NCBI GenBank assembly: GCA_021797995.1
Contig: JAJZYR010000003.1
Coordinates: 8,798 to 72,797 of the forward strand
Source: Candidatus Micrarchaeota archaeon
GTDB lineage: Archaea; Micrarchaeota; Micrarchaeia; Micrarchaeales; CABMGC01
Length of the DNA stretch: 64,000 nt
Direction: 5' to 3'
Shown here: positions 29,058 through 61,858 of the stretch, piece by piece
Layout: the number at the start of each line of letters is the position of its first letter
Position numbering within the stretch: position 1 is the first letter of the stretch
Notes under the pieces: generated by a model
Told to the model about the DNA's origin: nothing
Database searches by the model: none
What the model saw: only the letters and a program-made list of their open reading frames with translations
Program-made: the position numbers and the translations under genes

Positions 29058-29681
29058 TTAGTTCGCCTTCATCTCCAATTTTGCCTCGAAGTCGGAGATC
29101 TTGTAGTTGAACTCCTCAGTGCTCTTTATTAACCCTTTCTCCCTGAGGAACTCCCTCGCAAGCAGGTAGTATATCAGCGCAAGCGACCGCCTTCCCTTGT
29201 TGTTGCACGGGATTATCAGGTCGACGTACTTGATGATGTTGTCGGTGTCGCAGAGTGCGATTGTGGGAATGCTGGTCTTGCTCGCCTCCTTTATCGCCTG
29301 CCTCTCGTTTCTCGTGTCGCTTACCAGCATGATTCCAGGCTCAGAATAATCATCCCTTCTCGGGTTCGTGAAGCTGCCCGGCATGATCCTGCCCGGCATG
29401 GGCCTCGTTCCGGTTATCTCGGCGAATTTCGATGCGGCAGAGATTGCGTATATCCTTGAGGCAGTTACGACGATGTCCTTGGGCTCGAACCTCGCCAGCA
29501 GCTTCGCGGCAAGGCCTATCCTCTCGTTTATCGTGGAGAGATTGAGCAGGAAGAGCCCGTCCTCCCGTATCTTGTATACGAAGCGCCGCATGCCTGGCGT
29601 GGTGACCTTCGTGCCTATATGCACCCCCGCCTCCAGGAACGCCGCCTGGTCGAGCAGCAGCTGTTCAGTTTCCGATGCCAT
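29058..29681 (-). CDS. rps2: 30S ribosomal protein S2 (uS2)
   Basis: LLLDQAAFLEAGVHIGTK... uS2 pattern. The track ORF extends to 29720, but the ATG at 29681 has a GGTGA Shine-Dalgarno-like box 8 nt upstream, and the extension overlaps the tRNA-like gene. Confidence 0.88.
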   Translation of the reverse strand: MASETEQLLLDQAAFLEAGVHIGTKVTTPGMRRFVYKIREDGLFLLNLSTINERIGLAAKLLARFEPKDIVVTASRIYAISAASKFAEITGTRPMPGRIMPGSFTNPRRDDYSEPGIMLVSDTRNERQAIKEASKTSIPTIALCDTDNIIKYVDLIIPCNNKGRRSLALIYYLLAREFLREKGLIKSTEEFNYKISDFEAKLEMKAN

Positions 29682-29699
29682 TGTTTCACCATTTGATTT

Positions 29700-29812
29700 C
29701 GGGGTCGCCGAGACTTTCATAGGCTAAAGGAGCCTAATTTGAATTCCCGAAACGGATTCTCGGGTCATATGCTCCCTAAGCACATAGCCTTACCAAGCTA
29801 GCAGACGACCCC
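29700..29812 (-). tRNA. tRNA-Pro-like gene (anticodon read as AGG) with about 39 extra nt in the T-arm (putative non-canonical intron(s))
   Basis: Minus strand: GGGGTCG TC TGCT AGCTTGGTAA GGCT A TGTGC TTAGGGA GCATA TGAC CCGAG [46 nt containing TTCAAAT] CTCGG CGACCCC G. Acceptor stem pairs 7/7, T-stem 5/5 and anticodon stem 5/5 (one G-U). A TATA box lies about 30 nt upstream. Not a canonical contiguous tRNA. Confidence 0.5.
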
Positions 29813-29836
29813 GCACTTTATTGCTTGGTAGAGGTT

Positions 29837-29847
29837 CTTTTTATACC
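29837..29847 (-). promoter_or_regulatory. TATA box (GGTATAAAAAG on minus strand) upstream of the tRNA-Pro-like gene and rps2
   Basis: Immediately after the rpoN stop. Its centre is about 30 nt from position 1 of the tRNA-like sequence. Confidence 0.5.
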
Positions 29848-29848
29848 T

Positions 29849-30049
29849 TTACCTGCGGCCATAACTTATTATATTATCTATGAGCTCGACATTGCCGATG
29901 AACATCCTGCGGCAGCAGTACCTCTTAATGCCCATCGAGTCAAGAACCTTTCCCGGTTCTTCCTTGTCGACGTTTACGCGCTTTGCATACTCCTCCCACC
30001 TGTCCGCCACTACCTGGCCGCAGGAAAAACACCTTACCGGAATCATCAT
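29849..30049 (-). CDS. rpoN: DNA-directed RNA polymerase subunit N (Rpo10)
   Basis: 66-aa MMIPVRCFSCGQVV...KRYCCRRM zinc-binding pattern typical of RpoN/Rpb10. Confidence 0.92.
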   Translation of the reverse strand: MMIPVRCFSCGQVVADRWEEYAKRVNVDKEEPGKVLDSMGIKRYCCRRMFIGNVELIDNIISYGRR

Positions 30050-31424: not shown

Positions 31425-31510
31425 TGCAGGGGGAGAGATTTGAACTCTCGCAAACACAAAGTTACTGACCCCTCAAGCCAGCGCATTTGACCAAGCTCTG
31501 CCACCCCTGC
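31425..31510 (-). tRNA. tRNA-Leu (anticodon GAG), class II with long variable arm
   Basis: Minus strand: GCAGGGG TG GCA GAGCTTGGTCAAA TGC G CTGGC TTGAGGG GTCAG TAACTTTGTGTTTGC GAGAG TTCAAAT CTCTC CCCCTGC A. Acceptor 7/7, T-stem 5/5, canonical T-loop, no encoded CCA. Confidence 0.88.
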
Positions 31511-32239: not shown

Positions 32240-32830
32240 ATGGGCAATCTATTGGATGCGTATCTGAAAGAGGCTTCAAAACCACAGTTCGGCAGCTCAA
32301 GGCTCGTGCTCAGCACGGGAAAGAGGCAGCATGCCTCCATCGCCATGGTAGAAGACAGGAGCCGCGAACTTGCGGAGAACCAGGCCATCAGCCAGGTATG
32401 CACGGAATCCTGCAGATATGTCCTTGCCAGAAACATAACATACGACTTCATAGTATCGGTCTACGACATCAGCAGCACTGCCGCCGTCATTGCCAGGCCG
32501 TCTATGTTGCTGAATGCTGCGGCAATAGCAAGGTTGCTGGCGCACCAGCCTGCTGGAATCTCCAGGAGCGTAGAAATAAGGATAATAGGCATGCAAAACG
32601 GCGCTACGGAACTTGCAGCTACGGCAACAGAAATACAGAAGAGGGCGCGAGGACTGCTTGCCGAGGTGGACTTATTCGGCAACGAGACAAGGAACATCGC
32701 GATAGACCTGAAGACCGGGACGAGCTACGACCTTCTCCTTAACAGCAGGATATACGGGCCTGCCGAGCTGATAAACAAACAGAGCCGGGCGGAGTTCGAC
32801 GCTACTAGGTCAGAGCTCGCTTTTGTGTAG
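32240..32830 (+). CDS. hypothetical protein
   Basis: 196-aa ORF with no recognisable motif. Its 3' end overlaps the convergent ligT by 21 nt. Confidence 0.4.
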   Translation: MGNLLDAYLKEASKPQFGSSRLVLSTGKRQHASIAMVEDRSRELAENQAISQVCTESCRYVLARNITYDFIVSVYDISSTAAVIARPSMLLNAAAIARLLAHQPAGISRSVEIRIIGMQNGATELAATATEIQKRARGLLAEVDLFGNETRNIAIDLKTGTSYDLLLNSRIYGPAELINKQSRAEFDATRSELAFV

Positions 32831-33337
32831 CTCCTCGTAGACCGAGCCATTAGGCGTCAGCGTGCTCGTCTTCAGCACGATGCTTCCTACCTCGAAGGAG
32901 CCGAAGTCGTAGTCCTCGTACTCGCTGGCGATCTCAAGGAACGCCTTCCTGTCCTGCATTCCCCTAATCCTGCCTATCGTTGCATGGGGAACGAAGCGCT
33001 CCGGATCTCCTATACCAAGCTTTCCAAGCAGTGCGTCGTGCACTTCCGTTATCCTCCCGGCGCCGTCAGAGATGCCGGCGTATATGACGCGTATGCGCCT
33101 CGGCTTGAAGTAGGAGATGCCGTGCACGCGCGCCTCGAACGAACTGCAGTGTATTCCGTCCATCGCCTTCGCTATCTCCGCCGCCATGCGCTCGCCAACC
33201 TCTCCGAAGAAGCCAAGCGTTATGTGGAGTGCCTCCCTCTTTACGAGCGTGACTCCCCTGAAGCTGAAGTATCTCGATGCGTCGATAATCCTGTCCTTGA
33301 CGGCGTCGGGGATATCAATCGCAGCGAAGGCCCGCAT
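32810..33337 (-). CDS. ligT: RNA 2',3'-cyclic phosphodiesterase / 2'-5' RNA ligase family (2H phosphoesterase)
   Basis: 175-aa ORF with the two H-x-T-x motifs (ALHITLGF and VPHATIGR). Confidence 0.85.
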   Translation of the reverse strand: MRAFAAIDIPDAVKDRIIDASRYFSFRGVTLVKREALHITLGFFGEVGERMAAEIAKAMDGIHCSSFEARVHGISYFKPRRIRVIYAGISDGAGRITEVHDALLGKLGIGDPERFVPHATIGRIRGMQDRKAFLEIASEYEDYDFGSFEVGSIVLKTSTLTPNGSVYEELHKSEL

Positions 33338-52246: not shown

Positions 52247-52249
52247 TTT

Positions 52250-52323
52250 GCTCCCATCGGGATTTGAACCCGAGTTGCGGGGTTGAAAGCCCCACGTCCT
52301 TGGCCGGACTAGACGATAGGAGC
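52250..52323 (-). tRNA. tRNA-Glu (anticodon UUC)
   Basis: Minus strand: GCTCCTA TC GTCT AGTCCGGCCAA GGAC G TGGGG CTTTCAA CCCCG CAAC TCGGG TTCAAAT CCCGA TGGGAGC, discriminator A. Canonical cloverleaf, 74 nt, no CCA. Confidence 0.9.
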
Positions 52324-52395
52324 AACACCTTATTATTCTATGTCATGCTTTATTAATACTGTTTGCAAAATACCATTTGCATTTCTGGCTGAAGC

Positions 52396-53080: not shown

Positions 53081-54340
53081 GACCGACATAATTGATTTCT
53101 CCTCCTAGCACCTGACGCCGCAACAAGTCAGATAATGTTGCGGCGTGATGTATAAACAGGTGCAAACATGGAAATAGCAATAGACCTCGGAAAGTGGAAG
53201 AGTTACGTTGTCATGGAAGACAACGGCAAGATTGTAAAAGAAGGATACACGGGGACGACAAAAGAGGAGTTCTTCGCATTCTTCGGACAAGTAAATAATC
53301 CGAAGATAATAGTTGAGGCCAGTAGTACTGTAAACAGGATTGCGAATATTTTTGAAGGATATGACCTTACCGTAGCCCATCCTGCAAAAGTCAAACTGAT
53401 TGCACAGTTGGTAAAGAAGACAGACAAAGTTGATACGCATACGATAATGGATCTGTACAAAAAGGACTATCTTCCGAAGTCTTATCTGCCGTCAAAGGAG
53501 ATAAGGGATATGAGAGACATCTGCAGAGAGAGGTCTTTTCTGGTAGGGCAGAGAACCGCAATCAAGAACAAGATACGTTACCAGTCATATTGCCTCGGAA
53601 TAGAGTTCAAAACATGGACAAAAAGAAACATAAAAATGCTGAAGGAAGAACCAAAACTGAGGCTCCTGATGACACAACTTGAGTCTATTACTCATACAAT
53701 AACCAAATATGAACGTATGATAAAAGACGCGGCAGTAGAAGACGCCAATGCAAGGCTGATAGACACAATACCTGGAATCGGAAAAGTAAGTGCATTGATC
53801 ATTGCATCTGAAATAGGGGATGTAAATCGTTTCCCATCAGAGGAAAACATCTTCGCATACACGGGATTGGTGCCAAGAATATACCAGTCTGGCAATAAGG
53901 AATGGAAGGGCCACATTACAAAAGGCAATGGCTTCCTGAAGTGGACGTTAGTAGAATGTGTAGGGATACACATAATGAACTCTACAGATTCGCCTATAAC
54001 TGCAGCCTATGAACGCATACGAGAAAGAAGAGGAAACAAAAAGGCAAAGATTGCAGCTGCAAGACATATGCTGCGGGCAATCTATTATATGCTCAAACGG
54101 AATCAGAATTTTGATTCCTATTTGGGAGGCAGGAGGATGCGTTGATCCCACCGTGTTGCGATGCAACGTGCTTTAGACTAACGCCCTCCTGCCCTAATGA
54201 AAGTCAGAATATCGCACTGCGATGAATAGTAGAGCATTATGAAAGTATTAAAAGATGAATGGTGATAAATGATTAACCGAGAATATTATTCTGGCCTTGC
54301 GGCTCTTGCCGCTAGGTCGGAGAAATCAATATAGTAGCGG
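53081..54340 (+). mobile_element. IS110-family insertion sequence (IS1111-like layout); boundaries approximate
   Basis: DEDD-type transposase flanked by imperfect inverted repeats: ATTGATTTCTCCtcCTAGC (53091-53109) and GCTAGgtcGGAGAAATCAAT (54311-54330). The 12-mer and 6-mer blocks are exact. The interior is AT-richer than the flanks and interrupts tmk/dcd. Confidence 0.7.
53168..54145 (+). CDS. IS110-family transposase/recombinase (DEDD N-terminal domain plus Tnp_20 C-terminal domain)
   Basis: 325-aa ORF with N-terminal IAIDLGK, C-terminal LIDTIPGIGKVSALIIASEIGDVNRF and YQSGN (Ser nucleophile context). Confidence 0.88.
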   Translation: MEIAIDLGKWKSYVVMEDNGKIVKEGYTGTTKEEFFAFFGQVNNPKIIVEASSTVNRIANIFEGYDLTVAHPAKVKLIAQLVKKTDKVDTHTIMDLYKKDYLPKSYLPSKEIRDMRDICRERSFLVGQRTAIKNKIRYQSYCLGIEFKTWTKRNIKMLKEEPKLRLLMTQLESITHTITKYERMIKDAAVEDANARLIDTIPGIGKVSALIIASEIGDVNRFPSEENIFAYTGLVPRIYQSGNKEWKGHITKGNGFLKWTLVECVGIHIMNSTDSPITAAYERIRERRGNKKAKIAAARHMLRAIYYMLKRNQNFDSYLGGRRMR

Positions 54341-59577: not shown

Positions 59578-60753
59578 CTATGGCTGGAGCCAGTCAATCT
59601 CGTAATATTCCTGCCTGCTGTGCGGCAGCCTTATCTGCCTTATACGATAGTAAGTTACCGCCGTTTCCCTGTCCATTATGGCAAGGAGAAGGTCGAGTCT
59701 GCTCTCCCTCGCCCTCCTCAGCGCCCCTGCAAACTCCCTGCCCCCTATATACTCCTCCTCGCTGAGCGAGAGCATCGCGAAACGCGGAGGACCGCTATCA
59801 GGAGACTCCGCGTCTCCCCCCTTTCTATGGTACAGTATGTAGTCGAACCCAACATCGCGTTCGTCAGGGTCCCCAGGCACGGCAAGTATGAAGGTCTTCC
59901 GCACGGAATGCGCAACTCTTATCGCCCTGGCCCATTCGGATATCAGCAGCTTGGACTCCTTCGGGAAGACGTGTATGACGTGTTTCGAGTGGATCCAGCC
60001 TGTGCTCTCGCTCTTGAACGGCCTGGCTCCAGGGAAATAAACCCTGAAGTGGGTCCCAAACTTGAAGCCGGTCTTTATGACATAACCCTTCTCCCTCCAG
60101 TCCTTGTAGACCTGATAGAGCCTCGGGAAATCCCTCCTGCGCGCCGCAGCGTGTCTTTCAAGCTCCTTTACGGTTATGTTGTCCAGCACGAGCATTCCGT
60201 GGTCGATGAGAAACAAGGTTTCATAGACGTCGAGCTTGTTCAGCCTACCCCTCTCCGGGGCCTTGTAGGAGCCGTACTGCCCAAACCACAGCCTGTCATA
60301 GATGTCCCTGCCATGCTCGGCATCATCGATTATCGTAAGCAAGTCCGTCTTGAAGAAGACTCCGTGAAGCTTATAGTCGGGAAGCTTAAGCGAGGACACA
60401 GGGTACTCCTTTACCTGCATCCTGCCCGGCTCCGCATAGCTCGAGTCCGGGCTCTTTATAACCAGTCCGCGATCCCTCCAGTCCTTGTACGTAAAGTACC
60501 TCGACGTGAACTTTCCGGATTTCCAGAATGCCGATGCAATGTCGTTGAACGCTACCGGCTTCCCATTTGCAGTGCACTCGGCGTTCCTTACGTCCATGAG
60601 ATAAAGCGCCTCCTCGATCCCCAGGTAGAGTATGCCGTCGACCATGTTCCCGATATGGCCGCCCTTGAGCTGGTCTATTGTGGACTGGTCGTCGGAAATG
60701 ACCTCTTTTTTCGAGATAAGCTTCAGGTGCAGCATGCCATCATTTGCGCACAT
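59578..60753 (-). CDS. endA: tRNA-splicing endonuclease, three-unit single-chain form
   Basis: 391 aa. Central catalytic unit YKDWREKGYVIKTGFKFGTHFRVY...HSKHVIHV...AHSVRKTFILAV (Y/H/K triad context). An N-terminal degenerate copy (YKDWRDRGLVIKS) and an extra C-terminal about 90-aa unit are also present. Confidence 0.85.
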   Translation of the reverse strand: MCANDGMLHLKLISKKEVISDDQSTIDQLKGGHIGNMVDGILYLGIEEALYLMDVRNAECTANGKPVAFNDIASAFWKSGKFTSRYFTYKDWRDRGLVIKSPDSSYAEPGRMQVKEYPVSSLKLPDYKLHGVFFKTDLLTIIDDAEHGRDIYDRLWFGQYGSYKAPERGRLNKLDVYETLFLIDHGMLVLDNITVKELERHAAARRRDFPRLYQVYKDWREKGYVIKTGFKFGTHFRVYFPGARPFKSESTGWIHSKHVIHVFPKESKLLISEWARAIRVAHSVRKTFILAVPGDPDERDVGFDYILYHRKGGDAESPDSGPPRFAMLSLSEEEYIGGREFAGALRRARESRLDLLLAIMDRETAVTYYRIRQIRLPHSRQEYYEIDWLQP

Positions 60754-60823: not shown

Positions 60824-61858
60824 ATGAAAATCAGTGCAGATCGGAAAATAACGGTTCAAAAAGCCGCGGCAGTCAATCCCAACATGCCTGGCAAGCTTGC
60901 AGAGAAGATGAGGAAGCAGGGATACCATTTCGTGGGCAGGCACTCGGCAACCAAGATATGCGCATATACGTCGTCCAGCCTGAAGAAGGATGGCACAGGG
61001 TGCTACAAAAGCAAGTTCTATGGGATAGCAAGCCACAGGTGCATACAGGCGACCCCCGCGATAGGCTGCAATCTGGCATGCTCCTTCTGCTGGAGGATAA
61101 TCCCGGAGGAGGAAGGCTTCAAATGGAACGAGATAAACGCCATGGGCGAATGGGATGACCCTGGCAGGATAGCCGAAGGGCTGATAAACGAGCATAAGCG
61201 TATAATCACAGGATACAAAGGCAATGGAGGAGTCGACATTCTGAGGTGGCACGAATCCAACGACCCGGCGCATGTGGCGCTGAGCCTCACAGGCGAGCCC
61301 CTTTTCTATCCGAGGATGGGCGAGCTGCTCCAGGAATTTCACAGGAGGGGGATAAGCACTTTCCTTGTCACTAACGGCACGATGGCAGGCGCACTCAGGA
61401 AGCTCACGGTGATGCCGACGCAGCTCTATGTCTCTGTGCAGGCGCCTAACAGGGAAATCTACGAGCGGATTACAAGGCCGAAGACCCTCAATGCATGGGA
61501 GAGCTTCCAGGAGTTTCTCGGGGTGTTCTCAAGCATGCCTACGCGCAGGGTCTTCAGGCTCACCCTGATAAAGGGGATGAATATGCTTGACGCACAAGGC
61601 TATGCCGGACTCATAAGGAAGGGGAAGCCGCACTACGTGGAGCTTAAGGGATTTGTATTTGTCGGAGGAGCAAGAGGCGCCGGCCGCCACCTCTCATACT
61701 CGCAGATGCCGTCAATGGAGGAGATAATGGCGTTCGCAGAAGAGGTGGCAAGGGAATCTGGATACATTGTTGCCGACTATCATGCTCCAAGCAACGTGGC
61801 TCTCCTGTGCGCTGACGGCAACGCCTCTGCCGAGAGGATAATCAAATTCGCCAAATGA
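60824..61858 (+). CDS. taw1: radical-SAM tRNA 4-demethylwyosine synthase (Taw1/TYW1)
   Basis: 344-aa ORF with CNLACSFCWR (CX3CX2C) and an upstream Cys cluster region (KICAYT...GCYKSKFYGI.SHRC) typical of TYW1/Taw1. Confidence 0.85.
   Translation: MKISADRKITVQKAAAVNPNMPGKLAEKMRKQGYHFVGRHSATKICAYTSSSLKKDGTGCYKSKFYGIASHRCIQATPAIGCNLACSFCWRIIPEEEGFKWNEINAMGEWDDPGRIAEGLINEHKRIITGYKGNGGVDILRWHESNDPAHVALSLTGEPLFYPRMGELLQEFHRRGISTFLVTNGTMAGALRKLTVMPTQLYVSVQAPNREIYERITRPKTLNAWESFQEFLGVFSSMPTRRVFRLTLIKGMNMLDAQGYAGLIRKGKPHYVELKGFVFVGGARGAGRHLSYSQMPSMEEIMAFAEEVARESGYIVADYHAPSNVALLCADGNASAERIIKFAK

Follow-up and report, generated by a model that had tools for sequence, protein, structure and literature searches.

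A very probably functional tRNA-Pro(AGG) gene with two T-loop introns lies upstream of rps2 in a Candidatus Micrarchaeota archaeon

The closest described counterpart of the gene treated here is the pre-tRNA-Pro(GGG) of Candidatus Micrarchaeum acidiphilum ARMAN-2, which, as depicted in the original description, carries T-loop introns at tRNA positions 53/54 and 59/60 (Fujishima et al. 2011, NAR 39:9695, Fig. 1C; PMC3239211). The same authors connected the epsilon2-type EndA of ARMAN-2 with the large number of disrupted tRNAs in this organism (PMC3239211). We analysed a 64-kb stretch of DNA from a Candidatus Micrarchaeota archaeon (contig JAJZYR010000003.1; hereafter the window), in which the minus-strand segment 29812-29700 (113 nt) reads as a pre-tRNA-Pro(AGG). 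Comparison of this segment with its relatives leads us to regard it, with high confidence, as a functional tRNA-Pro(AGG) gene with two T-loop introns of bulge-helix-bulge (BHB) type at 53/54 and 59/60. The two-intron tRNA-Pro architecture has been known since 2011, and the window gene is a further case of it. Judged by the published description, the ARMAN-2 gene and the window gene share Pro identity, both intron positions, the BHB reading, the phylum and an epsilon2 EndA, whereas they differ in anticodon (GGG versus AGG), in organism and in EndA, which can be aligned over its full length but has clearly diverged. A further difference, by our reading, is that intron 1 of the window is relaxed rather than strict.

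Introns of Thermoproteales and other Crenarchaeota resemble those of the window in being short, with BHB or relaxed BHB motifs at positions such as 53/54 and 59/60, in numbering at most three per gene and in depending on a broad-specificity endonuclease (PMC3239211). However, this endonuclease is an (alpha-beta)2 heterotetramer and not a three-unit epsilon2 homodimer as in the window, and the lineage differs from that of the Micrarchaeota, which belong to DPANN. tRNA-Pro(AGG) has been reported in ARMAN-4 and ARMAN-5, where, together with tRNA-Leu(AAG), it provides an example of an archaeal tRNA-Pro with A34 instead of the usual G34 (Fujishima et al. 2011, PMC3239211). These organisms have an alpha4 EndA and few disrupted tRNAs, whereas the window combines A34 with T-loop introns and its tRNA-Leu keeps G34 (GAG). 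Finally, the pre-tRNA-Cys(GCA) of ARMAN-2, a different tRNA with a single intron, resembles the window gene in intron position (59/60). Its intron is the minimal, 13-nt relaxed form of the motif (hBH or bulge-helix-loop, BHL, where h and H denote helices and B a bulge), and 13 nt is also the commonest length of both introns in relatives of the window. It is the only experimentally cleaved substrate of the relaxed type, cut by epsilon2 EndA in vitro (PMC3239211). A 2025 paper on the structure of ARMAN-2 EndA does not mention tRNA-Pro.

On the minus strand the window gene reads GGGGTCG TC TGCT AGCTTGGTAA GGCT A TGTGC TTAGGGA GCATA TGAC CCGAG (46 nt) CTCGG CGACCCC G, and the 46-nt T region is composed of AATCCGTTTCGGGAA (15 nt), TTCAAAT (7 nt) and TAGGCTCCTTTAGCCTATGAAAGT (24 nt). 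An earlier, sequence-only reading of this DNA had listed these elements with their coordinates, and all of them were found on the minus strand as given. The parts of the gene are the following, with counts out of 73 copies referring here and below to 72 relatives plus the window:

29838-29845, minus strand: TATA box TATAAAAA, 26-33 nt 5' of G1 and directly 3' of the rpoN stop codon (29851-29849)
29759-29812, minus strand: 5' exon, positions 1-53, with the acceptor 5' strand, D arm, anticodon arm, 4-nt variable loop and T-stem 5' strand CCGAG; kept in 72 relatives
29775-29777, minus strand: anticodon AGG (A34 G35 G36) in the loop TTAGGGA, with U33 and G37; Pro(agg) according to ARAGORN on the spliced sequence
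29744-29758, minus strand: intron 1, 15 nt, AATCCGTTTCGGGAA, at tRNA position 53/54, with a relaxed BHB motif (hBH or bulge-helix-loop type)
29738-29743, minus strand: middle exon TTCAAA, T-loop positions 54-59; the mature TTCAAAT is invariant in 73/73 copies
29714-29737, minus strand: intron 2, 24 nt, TTAGGCTCCTTTAGCCTATGAAAG, at tRNA position 59/60, with a strict hBHBh' motif
29700-29713, minus strand: 3' exon, consisting of T60, CTCGG, CGACCCC and discriminator G, with no CCA encoded; defined by sequence and relatives, with compensatory changes relative to the 5' exon across the introns

It had been predicted that a contiguous tRNA scan would miss this gene, and both programs were indeed silent on the raw sequence. 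ARAGORN made no call at the site with or without its intron option (-i), and Rfam RF00005 gave no match in 29600-29900, neither at the gathering threshold nor at E <= 10. The only ARAGORN calls in the window were tRNA-Leu(GAG) at 31425-31510 and tRNA-Glu(TTC) at 52248-52324; Rfam detected the same two, and a search of the window for other hidden tRNAs, combining a canonical T arm with a distant acceptor partner, returned only these. Because T-loop introns make failure of the scanners on the unspliced tRNA-Pro expected, we did not count it as evidence against the gene. Deletion of 29758-29744 (15 nt) and 29737-29714 (24 nt) yields a sequence of 74 nt that ARAGORN identifies as tRNA-Pro(agg); no call was obtained when the sequence was left unspliced or when a single intron was removed. 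The suggestion of a tRNA-Pro whose T arm is disrupted at non-canonical positions, by one intron or two, was thereby borne out for the removal of both. The spliced product conforms to a class I cloverleaf: the acceptor stem has 7 bp, the anticodon stem has 5 bp and closes a 7-nt loop with U33, and the T stem has 5 bp, including G53-C61, and a loop of the form T54-T55-C56-R57-A58. Its D arm contains U8, A14, the dinucleotide G18-G19 and A21, all invariant among orthologues, and its D stem is built from G11-C24, C12-G23 and U13-G22, with a U-U non-pair at 10-25.

We estimated how often such an arrangement arises by chance from a skeleton in which a 7/7 acceptor stem directly adjoins a 5/5 T stem, the anticodon arm has U33 and the T region, 7-70 nt long, contains TTCRA. 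In first-order Markov random sequence this skeleton occurred 0.067 times per 64 kb on both strands, or 1.6 times without the TTCRA requirement, and within the window it matched only the tRNA-Pro site and the ordinary tRNA-Glu. Taken alone, this test is suggestive but not conclusive, and the comparative evidence is decisive.

The RpoN protein of the window is found on at least 24 public contigs. In the seven that were examined the spacer is 100% identical to that of the window and rps2 is called with 207 aa, so that these contigs carry no comparative information. Identical contigs belong to GCA_027327105.1, GCA_027363795.1, GCA_023485525.1 and JGI 3300033990. An alignment of ribosomal protein S2, whose homologues are labelled Candidatus Micrarchaeota or Micrarchaeaceae, yielded 80 loci from different Micrarchaeota species genomes with 65-86% S2 identity; one of them, L085, lies on the closed chromosome OY969902.1. 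In 72 of these loci a structure-aware scan located tRNA-Pro immediately upstream of rps2, and the alignment of the rpoN-rps2 spacer with relatives, proposed beforehand as a check, thus revealed conservation as a tRNA. The eight other loci comprise two that are cut by a contig end but retain the tRNA-Pro 3' part, four with a different gene upstream and two (L065 and L084, at about 2270-2500) in which rpoN runs straight into rps2 with no tRNA between; judged from these loci, tRNA-Pro is lost or moved in the L065 and L084 lineages. A TATA-like A/T box occurs at equal distance 5' of the orthologous tRNA-Pro in relatives, and TATAAAAA is a candidate promoter of the window gene. A literature search for a rpoN-tRNA-Pro-rps2 arrangement in haloarchaea found nothing relevant.

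ARAGORN produced just two calls for the 80 upstream regions and, when run with -i on the whole loci, three tRNA-Pro calls. We rejected these calls as gene models, since they were mis-folded or truncated: they include the anticodon arm of Pro(AGG) but use intron sequence or rely on a false 135-nt anticodon-loop intron. In L063, L066 and L080, tRNA-Pro(agg) was reported with wrong boundaries, either with intron sequence taken as the T arm or with the invented 135-nt intron.

The gene lies between two protein-coding genes on the same strand, and a spurious start codon falls within it:

29849-30049, minus strand: rpoN (RNA polymerase subunit N, PF01194), the upstream neighbour
29058-29681, minus strand: rps2 (ribosomal protein S2, 207 aa), as in public gene calls on identical contigs, preceded by GGTGA at 29690-29686
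29718-29720, minus strand: spurious ATG of an over-extended rps2 open reading frame (ORF) of 220 aa (29720-29058), located within the conserved ATGAA of intron 2

The tRNA-Pro discriminator and the rps2 ATG are only 18 nt apart, which makes it probable that rps2 is co-transcribed with tRNA-Pro and freed by 3' processing. A promoter of its own for rps2 would not fit into this spacing, which, together with the tight linkage kept in most relatives, speaks for a tRNA-like element serving mainly as a processing signal for the 5'-end of the rps2 mRNA (tRNA punctuation), with decoding secondary or absent. We consider such a restricted role unlikely. An invariant anticodon loop (U33, G35, G36, G37) and invariant nucleotides for tertiary interactions are not needed in a signal for RNase P and RNase Z. 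Moreover, the window ORFs contain 187 CCT and 137 CCC codons, together 47% of their proline codons, so that CCC needs a decoder, be it unmodified A34, inosine at position 34 or another tRNA. Punctuation is also compatible with a functional tRNA-Pro gene and is not an alternative to it.

Covariation across the relatives bears on whether the site is still a tRNA. The tRNA-Pro exons are about 93% conserved, and among 39 distinct spliced sequences 9 of the 21 cloverleaf pairs show double compensatory changes, among them T-stem and acceptor pairs whose two halves lie on either side of the introns. Pairing is complete (100%) in the acceptor, anticodon and T stems of all 39, a level reached by 0 of 500 shuffles, and slid controls fall to 37-50% paired. 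The T-stem variants CCGCG/CGCGG, CCGGG/CCCGG, CGGAG/CTCCG and CTGAG/CTCAG pair across the introns, which is direct evidence that the separated segments interact. In the D stem there is one compensatory change, G11-C24 to U11-A24, in L076. The sequence-only reading had pointed to A34, the U10-U25 mismatch and discriminator G as oddities. All three are present, but as signs of decay they did not hold up: A34 occurs in 72/73 copies and the U10-U25 non-pair in 38/39 distinct sequences, so that both are conserved traits, and 46 copies have G as discriminator against 27 with A.

These data also weigh on the possibility that the site is a decayed tRNA-Pro pseudogene, reduced to the role of rps2 leader after insertions had ruined its T-loop. 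Rejection of the site by standard scanners, the three unusual features just named and the two lineages in which rpoN abuts rps2 would fit decay. However, exon conservation extends over 73 species, and each of the four stems shows compensatory substitutions. The inserts preserve the geometry of the splice motifs even as they diverge in sequence, conservation also holds for the features that might pass for defects, and an invariant TTCAAAT and anticodon loop are not expected of a pseudogene. We regard decay as very improbable.

The standard archaeal BHB motif reportedly (Thompson and Daniels; Marck and Grosjean) has a 4-bp helix with a 3-nt bulge at either end, the bulges lying on opposite strands, with cleavage after the second nucleotide of each bulge. 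Intron 2 of the window forms a 3-4-3 hBHBh' motif in which the T stem CCGAG/CTCGG serves as outer helix h, the central helix H pairs U54-A57 (TTCA) with TGAA near the 3' end of the intron (4 bp), the bulges are AA|T and AG|T, and TAGGCT/AGCCTA (6 bp) forms the inner helix h', closed by the loop CCTTT. This is a textbook hBHBh' motif by the strict definition. A T flanks the intron on both sides and leaves its junction ambiguous by 1 nt (59/60 or 60/61); we assigned 59/60 on the basis of BHB geometry. The motif descriptions in the ARMAN-2 study agree with the standard archaeal geometry (PMC3239211). In intron 1, H pairs C48-G51 (CCCG) with CGGG (4 bp) and is followed by the 3' bulge AA|T54. Its outer helix is short, joining T44-G45-A46 to T55-C56-A57 (TGA/TCA), and its inner helix h' amounts to 0-1 bp in most copies, with the 5' splice site in a loop or at a helix end. 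We read intron 1 as belonging, by its predicted structure, to the relaxed hBH/BHL type and not to the strict BHB type. BHB-like elements had been anticipated at the proposed junctions, and they occur at both and are conserved in relatives, strict for intron 2 and relaxed for intron 1.

The two motifs share nucleotides. H of intron 1 takes in three nucleotides of the 5-nt T-stem 5' strand. The outer helix of intron 1 uses U55-A57, and H of intron 2 uses U54-A57; both splice motifs cannot form completely at once. This implies that at least one cut is made on an incomplete or relaxed motif, which fits an organism with a broad-specificity EndA. The tRNA-Pro region folds more stably than shuffled sequences (z = -3.98). 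Minimum free energy folding reproduces H, the 5' bulge and h' of intron 2 as well as the intron 1 hairpin, but not the complete BHB motifs; as bulges are penalised in such folding, we use it as an illustration only. At variable-loop position 44, T44 (TGAC) is present in 16 of 22 copies with intron 1 and A44 (AGAC) in 31 of 51 copies without it. T44 would add a third pair (T44-A57) to the outer helix of intron 1, and its distribution could reflect co-adaptation or shared ancestry.

The two introns are distributed over the 73 tRNA-Pro copies as follows:

Intron 2 only: 51/73
Both introns: 19/73
Intron 1 only: 3/73
No intron: 0/73

Intron 1, present in 22 of the 73, is 11-20 nt long and has 21 distinct sequences among these 22; the strand of H that lies within the intron pairs 4/4 in 21/22 copies, and the 3' bulge is AA in 22/22. 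The 51 orthologues that lack it have identical exon junctions. Intron 2 occurs in 70/73 copies, with lengths of 11-33 nt and 59 distinct middle segments. Its intronic strand of H is TGAA in 60 copies, TGAG in 7 and TGGA in 3, pairing 4/4 with TTCA in all 70. Furthermore, h' of intron 2 averages 4.0 bp compared to 0.59 bp in shuffles and covaries through 16 stem sequences, e.g. TAAGC/GCTTA, TGGGC/GCCCA and GGCA/TGCC. The commonest length of both introns in relatives is 13 nt, that of the minimal relaxed form. Each intron is present or absent at exactly one junction, and its removal restores the mature loop TTCAAAT in 73/73 copies.

Among the closest relatives of the window, L009, L012, L013 and L016 contain intron 2 only, whereas L011, L014 and L015 contain both. 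This indicates that intron 1 was gained or lost recently. An identical 13-nt intron 1 (AAACTTTCGGGAA) is found in the distant species L015 and L087 (81% and 65% S2 identity to the window, respectively). Half of its positions are constrained by the motif, and the identity may be due to convergence and not to transfer. In a metagenome collection, an exact search for the intronless consensus gave no match; the same pattern with two optional gaps retrieved 29 stretches, all with at least one insert (13 with intron 2 only, 13 with both and 3 with intron 1 only). With no intronless gene among the 73 species copies and these 29 metagenome stretches, the T-loop introns may be retained by selection, a reading that we put forward only tentatively.

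The distribution also speaks to the intron model itself. Considered in isolation, the 46-nt region of the window can be divided in several ways, and the junction of intron 2 is ambiguous as described above, so that a real gene with one composite intron of about 39 nt, or with other junctions and a different T-loop, could be imagined. In 51 copies with intron 2 only and 3 with intron 1 only, the same exon flanks are seen, which implies two independent insertions around an invariant TTCAAA(T). In addition, no single contiguous deletion gives a canonical 7-nt T-loop, and 53/54 and 59/60 match the ARMAN-2 case as depicted in its published figure. A different intron model has, in our view, very little chance of being correct.

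In most S2 homologues the protein has 204-206 aa and aligns from the ATG at 29681, which is also where public calls begin the 207-aa protein; the suspicion that the 220-aa ORF is over-extended was well founded, and the GGTGA noted before the shorter start is present, 4 nt ahead of that ATG. Also very improbable is the explanation that the site is not an RNA gene but the N-terminal coding region of a longer S2 (29720-29058), for which an ATG-initiated ORF and extended public S2 proteins such as P0001 and P0007 (220 aa) could be cited, but which conflicts with the homologue lengths and the 207-aa calls on identical contigs, with extensions that vary in frame and length as translations of a tRNA 3' half do (MKVSATP, MRLSATP, ESLGDPES), with the position of the ATG inside the conserved ATGAA splice element and with the GGTGA preceding the ATG at 29681. 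Public entries P0001 and P0007 start with MKVSATP, the translation of ATGAAAGTCTCGGCGACCCCG, and further false S2 N-termini derived from the tRNA-Pro 3' half are found in P0096 (...MRLSATP...) and in P0025 and P0035 (...ESLGDPES / ESLCDPES). The pseudogene, the longer S2 protein and the single composite intron were all rejected, for the reasons given with each.

The anticodon is AGG in all copies except that of L087, where it is GGG. This copy (approximately 2281-2382) has the loop TTGGGGT, both introns and a compensated anticodon stem CCAGC/GCTGG, and resembles the published ARMAN-2 tRNA-Pro(GGG). Finding GGG at an orthologous locus points to a replacement of G34 by A34. The 74-nt tRNA-Pro would read CCU and probably CCC too. 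That A34 takes the place of G34 in the tRNA filling the usual tRNA-Pro(GGG) slot of nearly all Micrarchaeota examined, and that either unmodified A34 reads CCU and CCC or an unrecognised archaeal deaminase makes inosine, is a tentative proposal to which we give only a small chance. Leu retains G34 while Pro has A34: the tRNA-Leu(GAG) gene of the window (31425-31510, minus strand) is uninterrupted and lies between rpoD and the L18e gene, and the same holds for 69 fetched loci.

Several points weigh against a functional, two-intron tRNA-Pro(AGG). Archaea almost never use A34 (PMC8879553), and the signature of a tRNA adenosine deaminase (cytidine deaminase (CDA) fold, H/CAE...PCxxC) had no match in six frames of the 64-kb window. 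The D stem combines the U10-U25 non-pair with only two Watson-Crick pairs. Intron 1 is without a proper h' or a defined 5' bulge, so that its cleavage would rely on relaxed-substrate activity, which has been demonstrated only for the ARMAN-2 pre-tRNA-Cys (PMC3239211). The structure-aware scan required perfect acceptor and T stems and hence favoured paired sequences; a looser regular expression that did not require complementarity recovered the identical tRNA-Pro set. Beyond the DNA level, finally, everything about this organism is what we infer.

A three-unit EndA had also been expected in the window, and such a gene is encoded there:

59578-60753, minus strand: EndA, three-unit (epsilon2-type), 391 aa, with Pfam tRNA_int_endo C- and N-domains

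Residues 16-391 of this protein align to residues 12-387 of ARMAN-2 EndA (PDB 4fz2) with E = 1.2e-151 and cover all three units, which identifies it as the three-unit epsilon2 type. In vitro, ARMAN-2 epsilon2 EndA cuts BHB substrates of the strict as well as the relaxed type (PMC3239211), and the window protein is the enzyme expected to excise both introns.

Maturation of the window tRNA-Pro could thus be envisaged as follows. Transcription would start about 26 nt 3' of the TATA box (29845-29838), just past rpoN, and, given the 18-nt gap between discriminator and ATG, would probably run on into rps2. The tRNA ends would be freed by RNase P and RNase Z, as known in general. EndA (59578-60753) is predicted to cut within the 3-nt bulges of the motifs seen in the sequence, after which an RtcB-type ligase would join the three exons and CCA would be added. 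If intron 1 were removed first, intron 2 would be left in a perfect hBHBh' motif stacked on the T stem. The spliced 74-nt tRNA-Pro would fold into a canonical cloverleaf.

Other genes of the window and of identical contigs may be mentioned. Divergent from EndA lies a gene for a radical-SAM protein with a wyosine-base-formation domain (Taw1/TYW1-like; 60824-61858, plus strand), which places two tRNA-maturation genes next to each other. A LigT / 2'-5' RNA ligase-like (cyclic phosphodiesterase) gene (L001:1-240, corresponding to about 32810-33049 of the window, minus strand) is located upstream of the rpoD-tRNA-Leu-ribosomal protein cluster on identical contigs. About 0.85 kb from tRNA-Glu(TTC), an ORF for an IS110/IS116/IS902-family transposase (DEDD_Tnp_IS110 and Transposase_20) was found at 53168-54145 (plus strand).

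In the literature searched, phylum-wide conservation of the locus, the presence of either or both introns but never neither, and near-universal A34 in Micrarchaeota are not spelled out. A required tRNA that is invisible to contiguous finders means that proline tRNAs are under-counted in the tRNA inventories and completeness estimates of Micrarchaeota metagenome-assembled genomes unless BHB-aware tools are used. In some public records the tRNA-Pro 3' half is mistranslated as the S2 N-terminus (MKVSATP...), and automated annotation of the L063, L066 and L080 genomes may contain malformed tRNA-Pro models. The natural series at one locus, with intron 1, intron 2 or both and never neither, could serve for tracing how non-canonical tRNA introns are gained and lost, and in what order epsilon2 EndA cleaves where two splice motifs compete for nucleotides. 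Near-universal A34 in Micrarchaeota runs against the rule that Archaea use G34, and the question of inosine (I34) versus unmodified A34 can be tested. Should inosine prove to be the answer, it would be the first known at the wobble position of an archaeal tRNA, and decoding would follow a strategy resembling that of eukaryotes.

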